Shown: piece by piece, positions 43,457-56,648 of the stretch
Numbering within the stretch: the stretch's first letter is position 1
Layout: every line of letters starts with the position of its first letter
NCBI GenBank assembly: GCA_963664395.2
Contig: OY761159.2
Span: 2,720,001 to 2,784,000 of the forward strand
Length of the DNA: 64,000 nt
Direction: 5' to 3'
DNA from: Candidatus Binatia bacterium
GTDB lineage: Bacteria; Desulfobacterota; Binatia; Bin18
Notes under the pieces: model-generated
What the model was told of the DNA's origin: nothing
Databases searched by the model: none
Seen by the model: only the letters and a program-made list of their open reading frames with translations
Program-made: the position numbers and the translations under genes

Positions 43457-44629
43457 ATGACATTCCGCCGGATCGTCTGGCCATTGGCGATTGCAGAAAC
43501 GCTGGTATGGGCGGCGCTCTACTATTCGTTTCCTGCCCTGCTGCTTGAGTGGGAACGCGACCTGGGGTGGTCGAAAACCGAGCTTGCCGGGGCGCTGACG
43601 CTGGCTTTGGTTACCTCGGCGCTGCTCGGGCCCATGACCGGGCGCTTGATAGACCGTGGTTTCGGACGGGTCGTCTTCAGCGGCAGTGCGGCTCTGGGGG
43701 CCGTGCTATTGGCCGGCCTCTCGTGGGTTGAACATCTGTGGCAATTCTACTGTGTGTGGTTCGGCATTGGCGTGGCGATGGCCGGCACGTTATACGACGC
43801 GTGCTTTTCCCTGCTGACACATGCCCTGGGCGACGAGGCCCGCAAGGCCATTACCCTCGTCACCCTGGTGGCCGGTTTTGCCGGGACACTCGCCTTTCCG
43901 AGTATCCATGTATTAGTCGGCTGGGTTGGCTGGAGAGACGCCGTTGTCATTGTCGCCGGCGTTGAGCTACTGATTGCCGTTCCCCTCATCTGGAAGGCGT
44001 GTCAGCGTGCCGACCACTATCAGGCCGACCGCCGCCCGGCAACGAGTGACCATACCGGAGCGGCAGTGCTCAGGGCTCCCGTCTTCTGGCTGCTCGCCGT
44101 GGCGTTTGGCTTGGCGAATTTGGAACATTTCAGCCTGCTGACCCATCTCCTGCCTTTGCTTGCTGAACGGGGTCTGTCGGCTGAAGCCGCGGTGCTGACG
44201 GCCTCTTCGATCGGACCCATGCAGGTGGCGGGCCGCCTGGCTATGTTGGCAGTGGAGAAATACGTGTCAACGTTGTGGATTGCGGTTGCCTGTTTCCTGG
44301 CCATGACCGCCGCCGCCACCGCTCTCTTTTTCGCTCAGAGCGTGGCGGTACTGCTCCCCTTCTTCGTCATTCTCCAAGGTGCGGGGATGGGAATGACCAG
44401 CATACTCCGCCCGGTGATGACCGCCGAACTGTTGGGCAGAGCCAATTTCGGGATCGTGTCCGGATTCTTGGCTATCCCGTCGATCCTGGCCGCAGCCCTC
44501 GCCCCAACCCTTGCCGCGATTGTGTGGCGAGTGGGGGGATATGAAACGGTCATCTTGATAGCAGCAGCTACGACAGTGGTCGGGCTGGGCTGTGTCAGCA
44601 GCATACCGCTGCTGGCGTTCCGGCGTTGA
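43457..44629 (+). CDS. MFS transporter
   Basis: GRLIDRGFGR motif A; ~12 TMs. Confidence 0.9.
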   Translation: MTFRRIVWPLAIAETLVWAALYYSFPALLLEWERDLGWSKTELAGALTLALVTSALLGPMTGRLIDRGFGRVVFSGSAALGAVLLAGLSWVEHLWQFYCVWFGIGVAMAGTLYDACFSLLTHALGDEARKAITLVTLVAGFAGTLAFPSIHVLVGWVGWRDAVVIVAGVELLIAVPLIWKACQRADHYQADRRPATSDHTGAAVLRAPVFWLLAVAFGLANLEHFSLLTHLLPLLAERGLSAEAAVLTASSIGPMQVAGRLAMLAVEKYVSTLWIAVACFLAMTAAATALFFAQSVAVLLPFFVILQGAGMGMTSILRPVMTAELLGRANFGIVSGFLAIPSILAAALAPTLAAIVWRVGGYETVILIAAATTVVGLGCVSSIPLLAFRR

Positions 44630-44785: not shown

Positions 44786-46303
44786 ATGGCACTCTTGGAC
44801 CGAGCCGAATGGTATGACATCGCCCGCGACACCAATTGGACTCCAAAGTATGTCACTGAAGACGAGCTTTTCCCCGAAGCACAGAGTGGCACGATGGGCT
44901 TACCGCTTGAGGTGTGGGAGAGTTACGATGAGCCCTATAAAGTAACCTATCGTGAGTACGTTCGGACTCAACGTGAGAAGGACGCCGGGGTGTATTCGGT
45001 CAAAGCCGCGCTCCAGCGGGCCAATTTTTTGGACAAGGCCGCGCCGGGCTGGGTGAGTATCCTCAAGCTGCACTACGGCGCGTTTGCCACGCTGGAGGCC
45101 ATGGCGTCGAGCGCGGAGTCTCGCATGGCCCGCTTTGGCAAGGCCGGTGGTCTGCGCAACATGGCGACCTTTGGCTCGCTGGACGAGAATCGCCACGGTC
45201 AGATTCAACTGTATTTCCCGCACGAACACGTCCACCGCAGTCGGCAGTTTGACTGGGCTACCAAGTCGATGCACACCAACGAGTGGGCTGTGATTGCTGC
45301 CCGCCATCTATTCGATGACATTATGGCTGGCCGCGACGCAGTTGGTGTAGCGCTGATGCTGACCTTTGCGTTTGAGACCGGATTTTCCAATGTACAATTT
45401 CTTGGTCTTGCGGCCGATGCCGCTCAGGCGGGCGATATTTCCTTTTCCAATCTCGCCTCGAGTATTCAAACCGACGAAGCGCGGCACGCCCAAATTGGTG
45501 GCCCGGCTGTGAAAATCCTGATTGCAAACGGGAAGAAGAACGAAGCCCAGCGACTAGTTGATATTGCCATCTGGCGGGCTTGGACCTTGTTCGCCACAGT
45601 GACCGGTCCATCCATGGATTATTACACCCCGCTCGACCGCCGCGAGAAATCCTTCAAAGAGTTCATGCAGGAGTGGGTCTTTGGCCAGTTCGAACGGACG
45701 CTCATCGACATTGGTCTGGAACGCCCCTGGTATTGGGCCACCATGCTGGCAGACCTCGATACCCGCCATCACGGTATGCACGCGGGCATCTGGACCTTTC
45801 ATAAATCGGTCTGGTGGGATGTGCCGCCCGGCATCAGCCGGGCCGAACGCGCCTGGTTGGAGGAGAAATATCCCGGCTGGGAAGAGACCTGGGGGGCGCA
45901 TTTCTGGGACCCGATCATTGCCCGCTTCCTGAAAGACGGCCCGGTCGATACGGTGCTGCCAACAATGGTGCAACTGTGCAATATGGCTCAAGTGCCGATC
46001 ACCGGCACGCCAGGCTGGACCCCGGGTAAGACCGGTCGGCCCTTGCAGGATTTTCCGCTCGAACACGAAGGACGCTTGTATCATTTCGGCTCGGAGGTGG
46101 ACCGCTGGATTTTTCAGCAAGATCCGGACCGCTACAAAGATCACCTGAGCGTTGCCGACCGGATGGTGGCCGGGATGATCCAGCCGCCGACCCTCGAAGG
46201 GCTGCTTGACTACTTTTCTCTCAAAGAGGGAGAACAGGGGGAAGACGCCCTCGGGCACAGCTGGTTGGAAGAGTATCGCCAAGACCAGGTCCAGGCCGCC
46301 TAG
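44786..46303 (+). CDS. tmoA: toluene/aromatic-alkene monooxygenase hydroxylase alpha subunit
   Basis: Colinear with TmoA/TouA; diiron ligands E104, E134, H137, E197, E231, H234; C-terminal YHFGSEVDRW. Confidence 0.93.
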   Translation: MALLDRAEWYDIARDTNWTPKYVTEDELFPEAQSGTMGLPLEVWESYDEPYKVTYREYVRTQREKDAGVYSVKAALQRANFLDKAAPGWVSILKLHYGAFATLEAMASSAESRMARFGKAGGLRNMATFGSLDENRHGQIQLYFPHEHVHRSRQFDWATKSMHTNEWAVIAARHLFDDIMAGRDAVGVALMLTFAFETGFSNVQFLGLAADAAQAGDISFSNLASSIQTDEARHAQIGGPAVKILIANGKKNEAQRLVDIAIWRAWTLFATVTGPSMDYYTPLDRREKSFKEFMQEWVFGQFERTLIDIGLERPWYWATMLADLDTRHHGMHAGIWTFHKSVWWDVPPGISRAERAWLEEKYPGWEETWGAHFWDPIIARFLKDGPVDTVLPTMVQLCNMAQVPITGTPGWTPGKTGRPLQDFPLEHEGRLYHFGSEVDRWIFQQDPDRYKDHLSVADRMVAGMIQPPTLEGLLDYFSLKEGEQGEDALGHSWLEEYRQDQVQAA

Positions 46304-46322
46304 CAGGGGTTGTAAGGCCCGT

Positions 46323-46610
46323 ATGGCACAGATTCCCATTGTCCATAATCTGCATCAAGAGTTTGTCCTGTATGTCTCCATCGTCGATACAGAGAATACG
46401 ATGGACGAAGTGTGCCAGACGGCAGCCCGGTTGAGCATTGGTTTTGAGAAAAACCAGCAGCCGGATGCGCCCCTCCGCGTGCGGAAAGTAGGTGCTGAAA
46501 AACCGTTTCCCCGCGACATGACGGTTGAGGAGGCCGGCATCACGCCGATGACGAGCCTCGAACTCTTTTATGAAGCAGCCGAGTCGGCTTCGCCCGAGCC
46601 TACACCATGA
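46323..46610 (+). CDS. tmoB: monooxygenase hydroxylase gamma subunit
   Basis: VDTENTMDEV, PFPRDMTVEEAGITPM; position after alpha. Confidence 0.85.
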   Translation: MAQIPIVHNLHQEFVLYVSIVDTENTMDEVCQTAARLSIGFEKNQQPDAPLRVRKVGAEKPFPRDMTVEEAGITPMTSLELFYEAAESASPEPTP

Positions 46611-47599
46611 GTACCGAATCCGAACCTCTCAAGCCACTGCGGACCTGGAGTCATCTCGTCGGTCGCCGCCGTCGCCCGAGCGAATATGAGATTGTCTCGA
46701 CCAATCTCATGTACGACGCCAAGAATGCGGAGTCTCCGTTTGAGCTGGGGCCGAATATCCCGCTCTCCAAGTGGTTCAAAAAATACCGCCACGGCTCGCC
46801 TCTCACCGGTCGTGATTGGGAGGAGTTCCGCGACCCTGACGAACTGACCTACCGCGCCTACAATATTCTGCAAGACGGCCAGGAGACCTATATTGAAGGG
46901 CTGTTCGACGAACATAACGAGCTCCAGTACGATGCCGGACTGGATGCCGCCTGGGCTGATGTCCTGCAGCGCTTGTATACGCCGGCCCGCTATCTGTTCC
47001 ACACCGTGCAGATGACCTCGCATTATCTGGTCCAGATTGTGCCATCGAGTACGATTCGGAACTGCGCAACCTATCAGGCTGCAGATGCGCTCCGGTGTGT
47101 GTCCCATATTGCGTATCGGACCGCCGAGCTTAAAAAGACCTATCCGGACAGAGGATTTGGTACGACTGAGCAAGAGGCGTGGGAAAACGCCGCAGTCTGG
47201 CAAGGCTTCCGTGCGCTGATGGAAAAGGTCTTGATCGCCTATGATTGGGGCGAGAGTTTTGTCGTCCTGAATCTAGTGGCAAAGCCGGCAATTGATGAAG
47301 TACTCCTGCGCCAACTTGTGGCCACAGGCCGTCGGCAGGGTGACAGCTTGCTCGGCCTCATTGCCGATTCCGAATATCGTGATGTCCGGCGCTCCAGAAC
47401 CTGGAGTACAGCCCTCGTCCGCTTTGCGGTTGAACGACCCGAAAACGTGGCTGTAATACGTGGCTGGGTGGAGAAGTGGCTCCCTCTGGCCGAACAGGCT
47501 ATCGACTTATACTGTCACGCGTTACCCGACAGTCCGCAGGCCGCGGCCGCGGCCAAAGAGGCCGTTCATGATTTTTTACGATCTCTCGATTTAGACTGA
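46607..47599 (+). CDS. tmoE: monooxygenase hydroxylase beta subunit
   Basis: LKPLRTWSHL..RRPSEYEIVS, FRDPDELTYR, YDWGESF. Confidence 0.93.
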   Translation: MSTESEPLKPLRTWSHLVGRRRRPSEYEIVSTNLMYDAKNAESPFELGPNIPLSKWFKKYRHGSPLTGRDWEEFRDPDELTYRAYNILQDGQETYIEGLFDEHNELQYDAGLDAAWADVLQRLYTPARYLFHTVQMTSHYLVQIVPSSTIRNCATYQAADALRCVSHIAYRTAELKKTYPDRGFGTTEQEAWENAAVWQGFRALMEKVLIAYDWGESFVVLNLVAKPAIDEVLLRQLVATGRRQGDSLLGLIADSEYRDVRRSRTWSTALVRFAVERPENVAVIRGWVEKWLPLAEQAIDLYCHALPDSPQAAAAAKEAVHDFLRSLDLD

Positions 47600-47613
47600 C
47601 TTCACCCCAGAGC

Positions 47614-47952
47614 ATGGCGTTCACCCGAGTCTGTAGCCTCGACGATGTATGGGAGGGCGATATGGCCGCGTATGAGGTTGACGGGCAAGCCATCATCTTA
47701 GTCTATCCCATCGATGGTGAGGTCGCCGCCCTTCAGGGCTTCTGTCCGCATCAACAGTCCTCCTTAGCTGAGGGCGATTTCGATGGTCACACGCGGCTGA
47801 CATGCAGCGCCCATGAGTGGCAGTTCGATGTCACGACGGGCAAAGGGATCAATCCGGCAGACTGCGAACTGGCCCGCTATCCCGTCAAAATCGAGCATGA
47901 CGAAATCTATGTGGACGTCGTTGGCATCGCGCCAAGGCGCGTCGGGGTGTGA
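47614..47952 (+). CDS. tmoC: Rieske ferredoxin of the monooxygenase
   Basis: CPHQ...CSAH Rieske motif; GKGINP. Confidence 0.92.
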   Translation: MAFTRVCSLDDVWEGDMAAYEVDGQAIILVYPIDGEVAALQGFCPHQQSSLAEGDFDGHTRLTCSAHEWQFDVTTGKGINPADCELARYPVKIEHDEIYVDVVGIAPRRVGV

Positions 47953-47967
47953 GTTGCGAGGACAGAT

Positions 47968-48267
47968 ATGGGTGAAAAGACAGGCAATAACAAAGTCGGC
48001 CCGGTGCTCAGCGCCGGGGACATTGCGGACGCGGCAATTGACGCCATCTACCAAGACAACCCGGACAAAGACGTGCGGGTTGAAAACCACCACGCCTACA
48101 TTCGGGTCGAGACCGATACCGAGTGCATCATCCGGCGCGAGACCATGGAGGCCACCCTCGGCCGTCCGTTCCACATGCAGGAACTCGAAACCGTCCTGAG
48201 TTCTTTTGCCGGACAGATCGAAACCAGCGCTCACTATATGCGCTTCTATCTGACGAAGAAGCTCTAG
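47968..48267 (+). CDS. tmoD: monooxygenase effector/coupling protein (MmoB/DmpM family)
   Basis: NKVGPVL, DNPDK, AYIRV, LGRPF, LSSFAGQI. Confidence 0.93.
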   Translation: MGEKTGNNKVGPVLSAGDIADAAIDAIYQDNPDKDVRVENHHAYIRVETDTECIIRRETMEATLGRPFHMQELETVLSSFAGQIETSAHYMRFYLTKKL

Positions 48268-48291
48268 GGTCTTTGTACGAGCAGGATCACA

Positions 48292-48331
48292 TCCCCTCTT
48301 GGGAGGGGTGGCGCGTAGCGCCGGGGTGGGT
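48292..48331. repeat. REP-like element TCCCCTC..GGAGGGG..GGGGTGGGT (reverse copy at 62069-62106)
   Basis: Two near-identical copies in the window. Confidence 0.75.
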
Positions 48332-48444
48332 TTCGGGCCGCAGCTTTCCGCGTTGGGAAAGAGAAGGCGGCTCAAGCGGACAAAGTTGGGGTGTGGGCGC
48401 CAGTTTGTTGCGCTGTGGCAATGGCGTAAGGGCGAAAGCGGATT

Positions 48445-49224
48445 ATGCAGGCTAAAGAGATGTTAAGTGAGGAGCAAAAACAGTTTTACCGCGACCAACT
48501 CCGGTCGGCCCGAAACGTTGCCCTGGCGGACGCCGAGGGGTTCATGGCTGTCGTTTACACGCTTGAGTTGATGGGCCAACAACTGGTGGGCAAGATATGT
48601 ATGGGCCTTGGTGAATACAAAAAGAAGTTGAAAGGCGTGGCCAGTTTATCTTCCCTGGCCCATAAGGTCGATCCAACGTACCACGTCAAATTTTCTACCC
48701 TATTCGATGAATTGAAGGATGCAAGGAATGATGCCGTGCATCAAGGTGCTTACGCACGGATACTTACCGATCATGCTGTGGATATTACAATCATACTTGA
48801 GGACGCGCTTATGTCAGGATTCTCCCAGGTTTCGCAGTTCATGGTCCGAGATGTAGTCGAAGCCAAGCCGTGGCAACCCATCAGTTACGTACGACAACAA
48901 ATGTTGAAATATAGCTTCTCTTATCTCCCCATTCAGCATGAGGAGACTTGGAAACTGATCCCTGAATACTCGGTTGCGAAATATCTTCGTGGTTGTTCCC
49001 CAAAAGAACGAGAAATACGGCTCGTCACCATAATTGAAGACGCCATCAAAGAAAGCAAGGGGAACGATAGGCTCCGCGTTCTATCGGCGAAGACCGTATG
49101 CCAGGAAAAGAAAATCGATGGCAGCGACATATTGAAGTGTGTAGGTACGAAACCGATCCTTGTCGTTGATCCCGACCGTGAAGATGAACTGGTAGGAATT
49201 TTAACCGCCGCCGATATCCTATAG
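48445..49224 (+). CDS. putative HEPN domain fused to a CBS pair
   Basis: Helical N-domain with R94-N-D-A-V-H99; CBS-like 'VSQFMVRDVV..FSYLPI' and 'LVGILTAADIL'. Confidence 0.65.
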   Translation: MQAKEMLSEEQKQFYRDQLRSARNVALADAEGFMAVVYTLELMGQQLVGKICMGLGEYKKKLKGVASLSSLAHKVDPTYHVKFSTLFDELKDARNDAVHQGAYARILTDHAVDITIILEDALMSGFSQVSQFMVRDVVEAKPWQPISYVRQQMLKYSFSYLPIQHEETWKLIPEYSVAKYLRGCSPKEREIRLVTIIEDAIKESKGNDRLRVLSAKTVCQEKKIDGSDILKCVGTKPILVVDPDREDELVGILTAADIL

Positions 49225-49457
49225 AAAAAAGCGACCGACTCTCCTTGATCCAGTAGTCCGCCGCGCGGGGCGACCAGGGGGAGGGTTGGGCCGCCGCCGT
49301 TCCGTGGTGCAGCCTTATGCCGGCTCAATCAGTTGAAGAATTGTTTCCCTCCCTGCAATCCTTCCCTTTTTTATTACTCTCTTGAGTATTTTTACTCGGG
49401 AGAGTAAATGCAACCGCTAAAATCCTTCCAACCCTGTGCGTGGCTCTTGCTAGAGGG

Positions 49458-49489
49458 AGGTCGGATTACGCTGCGCTAATCCGACCTGC
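49458..49489. repeat. REP-like palindrome AGGTCGGATTACGCTGCGCTAATCCGACCTGC (related copy at 62027-62057)
   Basis: Inverted repeat; second, diverged copy after miaB. Confidence 0.75.
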
Positions 49490-49500
49490 GGGGCTGACCG

Positions 49501-51147
49501 CTACGCCAACAAGGTGCGCGCAATCACCTTGAGTTCCAGAATAGGTTTGACGCCCTCAAAAATGGGCAGCACCAGGGCGTCCACGACATAGCGCGAGATG
49601 GCGTACTCTTCGCCATAGCCCCAGCCGCCGTGAATGAGCTGGCCTTCCTGGGTGACCCACACCGCCACATCGCAGGCCAGCAGTTTGGCCATGGCCGCGG
49701 TTAGTGTGGCCGCCTCGTCTTTATCCATGGCTGGTGCGGCGGCATAGGTAATTTGGCGCGCCGCGCTAATATGGGCGGCCATGCGGCCCAGCTTGTACTG
49801 GGTGAGCTGGAAGTCGCCCAGCGATTTCTTAAACTGCTTGCGCTCGGCCGCGTAGGCTGCGCTGACCTCCAGCGCGGCTTGGGCGAGCCCGGTTGCCCGC
49901 CCTCCGGTCTGGAGCCGTCCCGCGGCAAAGCCGGCCATCTGCAAATAAAAACCTTTATTCAGCCCAGCCTCTCCACCAACGAGGTTTTCGGCCGGGACGA
50001 AATATTTATCGAGGTTCAACACATAGGAATGCATCCCCCGGTAGCCCAGGGTCGGAATGGCGTCCCCCTGGAGCACACCGCCGGTCTCCTGTTGCATCTC
50101 AAACGAATGGCCCGCAAAAGCGTCTTTTTCAACAATGAATAATGACAGCCCGCGTGCACCGGAGCTGGTGTCCGGGTTGGTGCGGGCCAGTAGGGCAATG
50201 ATGTCGGCCCGTCCGGCAAACGTGCACCACGCCTTGGCCCCGTCGATCACAAAACCGCTTTGCCCGTTGAGCGTGGCCGGCTCGGCGCGGCATTTGACCG
50301 AGGCGACGTCGGAGCCGGTGTCCGGCTCGGTTACGGAAATGGCGACCATTAACTCTCCGCTGGCAATCGGTGGCAGCCATTTCTTCTTCTGGTCTTCGGT
50401 GCCGCCGCGTAATAGGGCCTTGGTCAGAATTTCCGGTCGGGTGATCAGACTGCCGGCCACGCCGAGCGAGGCCGCGGAGAGTTCCTCGGTGGTGATAATC
50501 ATGGCCAGATTGCCCATGCCGCCGCCGCCGTACTCTTCGGGCACCGACATGCCGAAATAGCCCAACTCGGACATGTTTTTGATCACGGATTCCGGAATCA
50601 GCTCGTCGTTGCGATGGACACGCTCCGCAATGGGCGCGACCTCGCTCTTGGCAAACTGACGCACCGAATCCCGCGTCATTGCCGCGATATCACTCTCCAA
50701 CCACGAGTGATTCACGCCTTTTGTCGCCAAAACGGTCTGACCGATCGCGCGGAAGCGACTCTCACGCGCGCCGTCCCGGATGGCGGCCCTGACCTGGGAC
50801 TGTCCGAGCGTGTCGTTCAGAAAAGATTCATCGAATCCGAAATCTTCAATATGGGTGCTGACTTGTGCGGCCAAGCGCTGGCCGACTTCGGCGGCAAACC
50901 CCAGAGCCATACTGGCCGTATGGCCGTTTTCGTCGGCGCGGTTTTCTCCGGCGGCCTGGGCATAGTGCAGGCAGGAGCGGGCGGCCTCGACCTCGGTCGC
51001 CAGATAGGCCAGCCGCTCGGCGTGAACCTGATGGTCATCGATGCCCTTGCCGTTGTCGGTCAGGCTGCGGCCGTGCTGGAGCGCCTCGTCGCGGACTTTT
51101 TGGAGCGCGTCAACGATCAGGCCGGTCTGTTGGAGTGTGTCGGACAT
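49501..51147 (-). CDS. mcd: acyl-CoA dehydrogenase with N-terminal extension, probable (2S)-methylsuccinyl-CoA dehydrogenase
   Basis: AAGGAG RBS before MSDTLQQ; TEPDTGSD, LGYRGM, IHGGWGY, IFEG; ~550 aa with N-terminal extension; divergent from mcl-ecm. Confidence 0.78.
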   Translation of the reverse strand: MSDTLQQTGLIVDALQKVRDEALQHGRSLTDNGKGIDDHQVHAERLAYLATEVEAARSCLHYAQAAGENRADENGHTASMALGFAAEVGQRLAAQVSTHIEDFGFDESFLNDTLGQSQVRAAIRDGARESRFRAIGQTVLATKGVNHSWLESDIAAMTRDSVRQFAKSEVAPIAERVHRNDELIPESVIKNMSELGYFGMSVPEEYGGGGMGNLAMIITTEELSAASLGVAGSLITRPEILTKALLRGGTEDQKKKWLPPIASGELMVAISVTEPDTGSDVASVKCRAEPATLNGQSGFVIDGAKAWCTFAGRADIIALLARTNPDTSSGARGLSLFIVEKDAFAGHSFEMQQETGGVLQGDAIPTLGYRGMHSYVLNLDKYFVPAENLVGGEAGLNKGFYLQMAGFAAGRLQTGGRATGLAQAALEVSAAYAAERKQFKKSLGDFQLTQYKLGRMAAHISAARQITYAAAPAMDKDEAATLTAAMAKLLACDVAVWVTQEGQLIHGGWGYGEEYAISRYVVDALVLPIFEGVKPILELKVIARTLLA

Positions 51148-51315
51148 GCAGTTCTCCTTAATGAAAGCAGAAGAGTGCCGAGAAAATATCACTCGGACAC
51201 ACATCCGCCTAGGGAGGTTGGGCGAGTGGCATGAATCTGATAGAGGAGGAGCCTTCTGTTTTCGTGACCCTGACAGACCGCCGACAAGAAAGAGACTGCC
51301 ATAGAGGAGGACCGT

Positions 51316-55424: not shown

Positions 55425-55446
55425 GGGCAACCCCCTGTGGTTGCCC
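55421..55446. repeat. GTAG REP-like element GTAGGGGCAACCCCCTGTGGTTGCCC
   Basis: Identical reverse-complement copy at 59245-59270 and near-identical copy at 60620-60646. Confidence 0.85.
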
Positions 55447-55475
55447 CTTGTGAGGAAAAGGATCAGGAGAGGGAA

Positions 55476-56648
55476 ATGTATCAAGCGTCTCTGTATATAA
55501 TACGCGCCGGGCTCGTCTGTATGGTCAGTCTGGCGCTGTGCGCGACGCCGAGCTCTGCTCAGGACACTGAGGCCGAGCAACTCTGGGGGCAGTGCGGTGG
55601 GCAGCAACACCAGCCCAAAAAGCGGCAGTGTTACCACGCCGGGCTGGAAAAAATCCTGCGCACCCAGGGCACTGAACACGCGCTGGCCACGCTGGACAAG
55701 CTGACACAGCGGGACCCTGACGTGTTGCGTGACGCTCACCCCTATACCCATCATCTCGGCCGGGCATCATTCGCATATTATCAGGATGTGGCCGAGGCAT
55801 TTGCCCGCTGCCGGGAGACCTTCTGGTCGGGCTGTTATCACGGCGTGCTGGAAGGCTATCTGCGCAGTCTGCCCGAGGTGCGGGCTGACACCATAGCCGC
55901 GGTGTGTACCCAGGAGATTGATGCCTGGCAGTCCACGTTTTTGCAGTATCAATGTCTGCACGGCCTGGGGCACGGCCTGACCTTATATTTTGATTACCAA
56001 CTCCCCGCCGCACTTGAAGGCTGCGATGCCTTAGCCTCGCCCTGGGAGCGCGAGTCGTGCTACAGCGGCGTCTTTATGGAGAATGTCGTGGCCTTTCTGC
56101 AGCCCCATCACACGCATCAGGAGGGACATCAGAGCCACGCCGACCGTCCCAGAAGCTTACTCCGGCCGGAAGACCCCTTGTATCCCTGTACGGCGGTGGA
56201 CGAAGCCTACCAACGGGCCTGTTACCGGATGCAGTCTTCAGCCATCCTGGCCTTTTCGCAGTACGATTTCACAAAGGCTTTTCAAGTGTGCGCCGGCGCG
56301 CCGGCCGCATTTGTGACTGTCTGCTATGAAAGCCTGGGTCGCGATGTGAGCGGGTTCACGATGCGTGATGCTGAGAAGACTATGGGCCTGTGCCAGCAGG
56401 GCAGCCCGGAACAGGCCACCGCCTGTCTTGTTGGTGCGGTGAAAGATTTTATCTTGACCCACGCCGACCCGCAGCGTGGACTCGCATTTTGTCGGCGGCT
56501 TGACGACGCTTCAAAAGAAGCGTGTTACGCAGCGACCGGTGAGGTCCTCTTGTCGCTATATCCGGACAACCAACAACGAGCCCAGTCCTGTGCCCAAGCG
56601 GAGCAGGACTATATTGAAGCCTGCAAAGCTGCTGCGGCCGCCTTGTAA
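55476..56648 (+). CDS. secreted Cys/His-rich repeat protein
   Basis: Signal peptide; HPYTHHLG, GCYHGVLE, CLHGLGHG, CYSGVFME, CYESLG repeats. Confidence 0.8.
   Translation: MYQASLYIIRAGLVCMVSLALCATPSSAQDTEAEQLWGQCGGQQHQPKKRQCYHAGLEKILRTQGTEHALATLDKLTQRDPDVLRDAHPYTHHLGRASFAYYQDVAEAFARCRETFWSGCYHGVLEGYLRSLPEVRADTIAAVCTQEIDAWQSTFLQYQCLHGLGHGLTLYFDYQLPAALEGCDALASPWERESCYSGVFMENVVAFLQPHHTHQEGHQSHADRPRSLLRPEDPLYPCTAVDEAYQRACYRMQSSAILAFSQYDFTKAFQVCAGAPAAFVTVCYESLGRDVSGFTMRDAEKTMGLCQQGSPEQATACLVGAVKDFILTHADPQRGLAFCRRLDDASKEACYAATGEVLLSLYPDNQQRAQSCAQAEQDYIEACKAAAAAL

Follow-up and report, generated by a model that had tools for sequence, protein, structure and literature searches.

A putative adenine-nucleotide-gated ribonuclease of the HEPN-CBS architecture in Candidatus Binatia that resembles the anti-phage protein DS-11

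In the stretch of Candidatus Binatia DNA analysed here (hereinafter the window, 64,000 nucleotides in length), a gene for a 259-amino-acid protein (48445..49224, plus strand; defined by the ORF call, homologues and a structural model) sits among metabolic genes, and the question that it raises is what a protein that appears to join a HEPN-type helical domain to a pair of CBS domains might do for the cell. The first-pass annotation described an AT-rich gene between REP-like elements, and this description is accurate: the gene has a GC content of 0.482 (GC3 0.54), compared with 0.55-0.62 (GC3 0.63-0.75) for its ten neighbours, and belongs to the 2.2% of the 2,939 ORFs of at least 200 amino acids on contig C1 (median GC 0.573) that are equally AT-rich. 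By blastn, the palindromic repeat upstream (48290..48334, no strand assigned) is matched about 90 times across the genome, and the one downstream (49455..49495, no strand assigned) about 45 times; both fold as hairpins and they represent two different families. Since both families are common genome-wide, they are not a special mark of this gene, and we rejected them as an indication of mobility.

The flanking genes, neither of which belongs to the putative system, encode a TmoD-like monooxygenase coupling protein on the left (47968..48267, plus strand; Pfam MmoB_DmpM) and an acyl-CoA dehydrogenase on the right (49501..51150, minus strand, start approximate; identified by Pfam), so that, judging by ORF calls and Pfam, there is indeed no adjoining antitoxin, nucleotidyltransferase or cyclase. 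The gene lies 177 nt downstream of a tmoA-B-E-C-D-like cluster and is convergent with the dehydrogenase gene. A scan for promoters and terminators at the gene returned matches at chance level. RNA run X1 yielded two short exact contigs within the gene, for which DNA carry-over is a possible source, and runs X2 and X3, both of a different strain, yielded none within it. Several other features of the window are worth recording. The cluster at 44786-48267 encodes a soluble di-iron aromatic monooxygenase of the tmoA-B-E-C-D type, with no adjoining reductase gene seen; downstream of the HEPN-CBS gene, at 49375-49410, lies a near-perfect inverted repeat of 15 bp that genomes G006 and G007 share; and the gene at 55437-56648 encodes a Cys-rich protein of 403 amino acids that is apparently secreted and to which Pfam assigns nothing at E <= 1.

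The model of the full-length protein has a pLDDT of 92.8, and the N-terminal domain (residues 9-122; 48469..48810, plus strand), when folded alone, is all-helical with a pLDDT of 92. The L40-E41 pair and the R94-NDAV-H99 motif noted at first reading are both present in the ORF and the model, with the Rx4H motif following helix 83-96. Such a motif is common by chance (among 8,589 arbitrary 124-residue windows of the genome, Rx4H occurs in 17.7% and R[NDH]x3H in 2.1%), so its presence alone means little, and it is invariance across homologues that counts. We identified 251 homologues among 1,166 candidates. In an alignment of 102 sequences (the protein itself and homologues of at least 225 residues, out of 121), the motif R94-N-D-A-V-H99 (48724..48741, plus strand) retains R94, N95 and H99 in every sequence, as it does in all 80 genome loci, which answers in the affirmative the question of whether R94 and H99 are conserved; R[NDS]x3H is present in 256 of 256 further homologues. 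The other positions that are invariant in the alignment are the upstream glutamate E41 (48565..48567, plus strand), G101, R105, H110 and E119. E41 is kept in 75 of the 80 loci, four of the remaining sequences being truncated and one having another residue, and, unlike R94, N95 and H99, neither H110 nor H80 is kept throughout these loci.

Whether this domain adopts the HEPN fold, as originally proposed, was addressed by structure and profile comparison. In a VIA search of 48,161 chains, ranks 1-10 are occupied by six HEPN proteins and four nucleotidyltransferase-associated helical domains, which we take to belong to the same clan as HEPN: the C-terminal domain of ANT-4 (Z 8.4, rmsd 3.6, 103 residues aligned) ranks first, accompanied by the HEPN protein AF_0298 (Z 8.1, rmsd 4.2, 109 aligned), YutE (Z 8.1), HepT toxins (Z 8.0, 7.9 and 7.6), the sacsin HEPN domain (Z 7.0), HI0074 (Z 6.9), Csm6 (Z 6.7) and a nucleotidyltransferase-like protein (Z 6.5). 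Unrelated helical bundles begin at Z 6.5, and the range of 6.5-8.4 is middling for a helical bundle, given the tool's own note that values below about 13 may reflect a common arrangement. Foldseek found no match to the N-domain model at E <= 0.001; Pfam gave no significant HEPN match for the protein or for 74 N-domains (best, HEPN_Apea, E 0.06); a profile search of the PDB for HEPN returned nothing significant; and the best score in the ESM Atlas, 0.80, is at the chance level. A profile comparison with hhalign, however, aligned the domain to the Swt1-like HEPN domain of the DS-11 family at 61% (E 8e-5, 71 columns). Because all ten of the top VIA matches come from one clan and the motif is invariant, we consider the N-domain likely to be a HEPN domain.

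The C-terminal part (residues 125-259; 48817..49221, plus strand) was described from the outset as a CBS pair, and a tandem CBS fold is what both Foldseek (E 1e-6) and VIA (Z 13.3, rmsd 2.8, 112 aligned) recover; indeed, CBS matches fill the whole-protein fold searches. The Pfam match in the protein itself lies below the cut-off (E 1.7e-4), and 80 of 81 homologues match CBS at E <= 0.5. Two conserved segments stand out. In F158-S159-Y-L-P162 (48916..48930, plus strand), located by residue conservation and by alignment to the DS-11 family, position 158 is aromatic in 101 of the 102 aligned sequences and P162 is present in all 102. In G251-I-L-T-A-A-D257 (49195..49215, plus strand), D257 is found in 97 of the 102, and a motif of the G251-T254-D257 type occurs C-terminally in 216 of 244 further homologues. 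We take the GhhTxxD signature at residues 251-257 to be the likely ribose-phosphate motif of a CBS site, and presume that F158-S159-x-L-P162 and G251-x-x-T254-x-x-D257 together form one nucleotide site, the other CBS site appearing degenerate. CBS pairs are described as adenylate sensors in the DS-11 report and the references that it gives (PMC13092281), and, judging from its sequence, the CBS pair of this protein is likely a candidate nucleotide-sensing module.

The protein is predicted to be a homodimer. With two ATP molecules included, the predicted dimer scores 0.72 compared with 0.00 for the best control, the score mark being one that 20 of 30 known homodimers and one of 23 monomers reach; given that many CBS dimers have been solved, the pass may come from likeness to them. 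The runs agree for 93% of the contacts, with pLDDT of at least 83. For the most part, the predicted contacts are between CBS domains, and R94-H99 is absent from the confident contacts. In addition, I116 and E119 in the last HEPN helix are predicted to pack on Q151 and L154 in a CBS helix of the partner chain; E119 is invariant, Q151 and L154 are nearly so, and positions 116, 119, 151 and 154 are among the most conserved.

The first-pass annotation knew of no characterised example of such a protein, and this statement does not survive a comparison with the literature. DS-11 (Science 2026) is a validated one-protein CBS+HEPN anti-phage system, the defence function of which is lost with the Y157A substitution and with HEPN catalytic mutants, and the gating ligand of which is stated to be undiscovered (PMC13092281). 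Fusions of HEPN with CBS (+HD) were predicted to be ligand-regulated RNases already in 2013 by Anantharaman et al. (PMC3710099). The protein resembles DS-11 (DefensePredictor; E. coli WP_000257686.1; NCBIfam NF053863) in several respects: in each case, a single gene without a partner encodes a predicted dimer that combines a CBS pair with a HEPN domain carrying RNDxxH, and F158 aligns with Y157 of DS-11 (DS-11 numbering counted by eye). The architectures differ, however, DS-11 being a 365-residue protein with an extra N-terminal domain followed by CBS (134-241) and HEPN_Swt1 (252-359), whereas the order is reversed in the 259-residue protein described here, with HEPN at 9-122 and CBS at 125-259.

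The protein scores 12.4 bits on the NF053863 model, compared with the cut-off of 260 and 391.5 for a true member, and across 61 genomes of the phylum this model found nothing above the cut-off. In hhalign comparisons with 121 DS-11-family proteins, the CBS pairs align at 96% and the HEPN domains at 61%, with no match to the DS-11 N-terminal domain (0.4%). The cross-profile medians for CBS are 14 and 9.5 bits, whereas ordinary CBS proteins score 17-46 bits on the DS-11 CBS profile. The CBS pairs thus are no closer to each other than generic CBS domains, and the idea of a circular permutation of DS-11 is not supported. With ordinary CBS proteins scoring above the cross-profile comparison, the two proteins, although they would share one logic, belong to different families that probably originated by separate fusions; the profile match between the HEPN domains may reflect an ancient link.

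Three other known systems invite comparison. The Swt1-like class that includes alr3009 and the Pelobacter protein gi 118580987 also has HEPN fused to CBS and is predicted to consist of ligand-regulated RNases; in a comparison by description only, members of this class may carry an HD domain whereas the present protein does not (PMC3710099). The HepT/SO_3166 toxins of HEPN-MNT pairs provide the closest catalytic solved folds (Z 7.6-8.0), but there is no MNT antitoxin for this gene in the window, and its regulation would use the fused sensor instead. Csm6 and Csx1 (CARF-HEPN) similarly join a nucleotide sensor to a HEPN RNase; the Csm6 fold match is weak (Z 6.7), the PADLOC Csx1 match covers residues 57-103 at E 0.024, the sensor is CBS rather than CARF, and no CRISPR or cyclase gene is found among the immediate neighbours. 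EF1724 figures in PMC7701990 solely as a protein with CBS domains that matters for fitness. A literature search, which left subscription papers and bioRxiv supplements outside its scope, found no paper on a HEPN-first HEPN-CBS family.

The N-domain profile matches 880 clusters (at 50% identity) at E <= 0.001 and 706 at 1e-10, and among 256 homologues examined, HEPN precedes CBS in all 244 that hold both domains, the other 12 being short or ending early. Among the best 80 of 89 matches, the named hosts are Ca. Binatia (the closest, 70%), Acidobacteria, Cyanobacteria, Planctomycetes, Verrucomicrobia, Chloroflexi and others. Homologues occur on 14 plasmid records, whereas a search of 50,697 phage records gave none. 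A few rare long forms (P0310, P0374, P0380, P0416 and P0295) carry extra N-terminal domains: an unannotated one with 'YFGD..D' (twice), a nuclease-like one, DUF6946 (P0416) and a HicB-like piece (by the name given in the source), the nuclease-like motifs of P0380 and P0416/DUF6946 being seen by eye. Separately, proteins of about 590 residues at L132:1468-3243 and in L133, with an N-terminal CBS pair and scores below the DS-11 cut-off, represent a further CBS-HEPN architecture, with an internal RNDLAH in the case of L132.

Within the genus, the gene is accessory and moves horizontally, being patchily distributed, with gains and losses. Five of 24 congeners match, three with intact genes (one of these with two copies) and two with fragments, and none of 16 more distant relatives has the gene. 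Judging by Pfam and inspection of ORF translations by eye, the intact congener copies lie after comM, an amine oxidase gene and hpaB, and none after tmoD, so that the genus shows four distinct sites of insertion. Across the family, homologues have a lower GC content than their surroundings at 77 of 80 loci, by a median of 8 points. In G006, the same site with the same leader contains a 34-codon HEPN-CBS remnant followed by a piece of an MFS gene (L111:532-740); this segment of 101 nt derives from the MFS gene that precedes the monooxygenase cluster, where it corresponds to window 43916-44016.

A link to the monooxygenase operon was considered and rejected: of 27 congeners, 19 possess the operon, yet not one of these 19 has an intact HEPN-CBS gene beside tmoD. 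In four of the 19, tmoD is joined directly to the acyl-CoA dehydrogenase gene (13 of the 19 loci were read over 5-8 kb). The slot between these two genes holds, in G021, the PADLOC candidates PDC-S05 and PDC-S31 (DUF2971) and a Tle1-like gene (L114:4510-7866). In G001 (L115:4493-7645), tmoD is followed by an AAA ATPase gene, a gene for a 487-residue pAgo/PIWI protein two genes on, and a MazF-like gene; pAgo, MazF, VapB-like or HicA genes follow tmoD in G001, G002, G004 and G005, which have another right flank. A two-component system follows tmoD in three congeners, and nothing notable in the remainder. The G001 pAgo protein scores 802 bits and matches only the C-terminal part (687-1121) of the long PADLOC pAgo model.

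Does the family keep company with defence genes? ORFs at the 80 loci were called with a simple program, and Pfam was run on 150 of the 153 that adjoin a homologue and on the full set of 144 that come second. Restriction, methylase, GmrSD, Mrr, NOV, Schlafen-helicase or BREX genes account for 14 of the 294 neighbour ORFs at E <= 1e-6 (15 at 1e-5), spread over 12 of the 80 loci, whereas 150 of 155 control ORFs from 20 regions include none, or one if an SNF2 helicase is counted (Fisher p 0.003-0.025, with the defence classes assigned by hand and control regions that are not taxon-matched and cannot separate a defence island from any accessory region). PADLOC applied to 20 hand-picked neighbours, from the homologue side only, adds ZacA and PglZ. 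By contrast, no recognised defence gene occurs within two ORFs in 67 of the 80 loci, and toxin-antitoxin genes show no excess (12 of 294 neighbours versus 5 of 150 controls, p 0.8). An excess of restriction and BREX genes is therefore seen near the homologues, at a minority of loci; given the defence-free majority, the hand-assigned classes and the unmatched control, we rate this excess as genuine but modest. No Cas family was detected among the 294 ORFs, adenylate/guanylate cyclases match two of them compared with one of 150 controls, and a nucleotidyltransferase adjoins a homologue in one of the 80 loci. A conserved partner gene was sought and rejected, as no partner recurs and the largest neighbour cluster (trypsin-like/Sel1 proteins, 10 of the 80 loci) varies in side and strand; this fits the stand-alone character originally attributed to the gene. 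The commonest immediate neighbours are genes for trypsin-like peptidases and Sel1/TPR proteins, at 9 of the 80 loci and in mixed orientation (L015, L021, L022, L023, L034, L039, L026, L030 and L074).

We regard it as fairly probable, by analogy, that this protein is an adenine-nucleotide-gated anti-phage RNase working like DS-11. The predicted HEPN ribonuclease would be kept silent in a homodimer held by CBS-CBS contacts until an adenine nucleotide linked to infection occupies the CBS pair, one ligand per chain at the F158/S159...T254/D257 site; the packing of I116/E119 on Q151/L154 of the partner offers a plausible route from the ligand site to the nuclease, in which the two Rx4H motifs would build one active site. 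Because DS-11 Y157A loses defence, ligand binding would switch the enzyme on, and therefore the trigger would more likely be a shift from ATP to AMP, ADP or Ap4A, or a cyclic nucleotide, than ATP itself. Once active, the HEPN domain would cut cellular RNA, conceivably tRNA or mRNA, arresting the cell and probably aborting phage infection, as for DS-11. Of the one-gene sensor-effector first envisaged, the HEPN-CBS anatomy, the invariant motif, the stand-alone accessory character and the defence leaning thus stand, and the novelty does not, in view of DS-11 and the 2013 prediction.

An energy- or stress-sensing RNase, that is, a dormancy switch gated by AMP, ADP or Ap4A that regulates RNA turnover regardless of phage, is an unlikely alternative. 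In its favour, CBS pairs are adenylate sensors (references in PMC13092281), ligand-regulated RNA stability was proposed for HEPN-CBS fusions in 2013 (PMC3710099), defence genes are missing near most loci, and a same-strand gene, often a housekeeping one, precedes 34 of 73 homologues at a distance of at most 60 nt (by crude ORF calls). A physiological regulator, however, would hardly be expected to be patchy, AT-rich, repeatedly lost and found at changing sites, and the excess of restriction-type neighbours also speaks against this view.

That excess, together with the near-exclusive presence of RM, GmrSD, Mrr or BREX genes among the defence neighbours and the nuclease-like N-terminal motifs (by eye) of the rare long forms P0380 and P0416/DUF6946, could be taken to indicate a back-up guard of restriction, on the model of PrrC/RloC, in which the RNase fires on blocked restriction or disturbed nucleotide pools and would pay off chiefly in the company of RM or BREX. 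This seems quite improbable, as such a neighbour is present in only 12-13 of 80 loci, the kinds are unrelated, no partner cluster recurs, and none adjoins the gene described here. We give equally little credence to the notion that there is no ligand gating, the CBS pair serving purely to hold the dimer together or the N-domain binding RNA or protein without cutting. The mostly CBS-CBS interface of the predicted dimer, the divergence of the CBS pair (under the Pfam cut-off) and the seemingly degenerate second site are compatible with it, but R94, N95 and H99 never vary, and the family retains both F/Y-S/T and GhhTxxD, matching the position that DS-11 needs for defence.

Under the preferred reading, that of a DS-11-like gated RNase, the CBS+HEPN concept is already published, and what is added is a separate, HEPN-first family. 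This smaller, separate family, with the reverse domain order and the same key aromatic residue, would be a second test case for DS-11 gating, and it could serve as a nucleotide-switched RNase. The family would also widen the catalogue of defence genes beyond PADLOC 2023 and NCBIfam 2026, which miss this gene. More tentatively, the approximately 880 clusters from many phyla might constitute a second, independently assembled family of CBS-gated RNases, in effect a one-gene, AMPK-like immune sensor that responds to declining energy charge, or to a so far undescribed adenine nucleotide made during infection, and shuts the cell down. If this is true, a protein of 259 residues that consists of sensor and nuclease alone would offer the easiest way to the DS-11 ligand, and CBS-HEPN immunity would have arisen twice.
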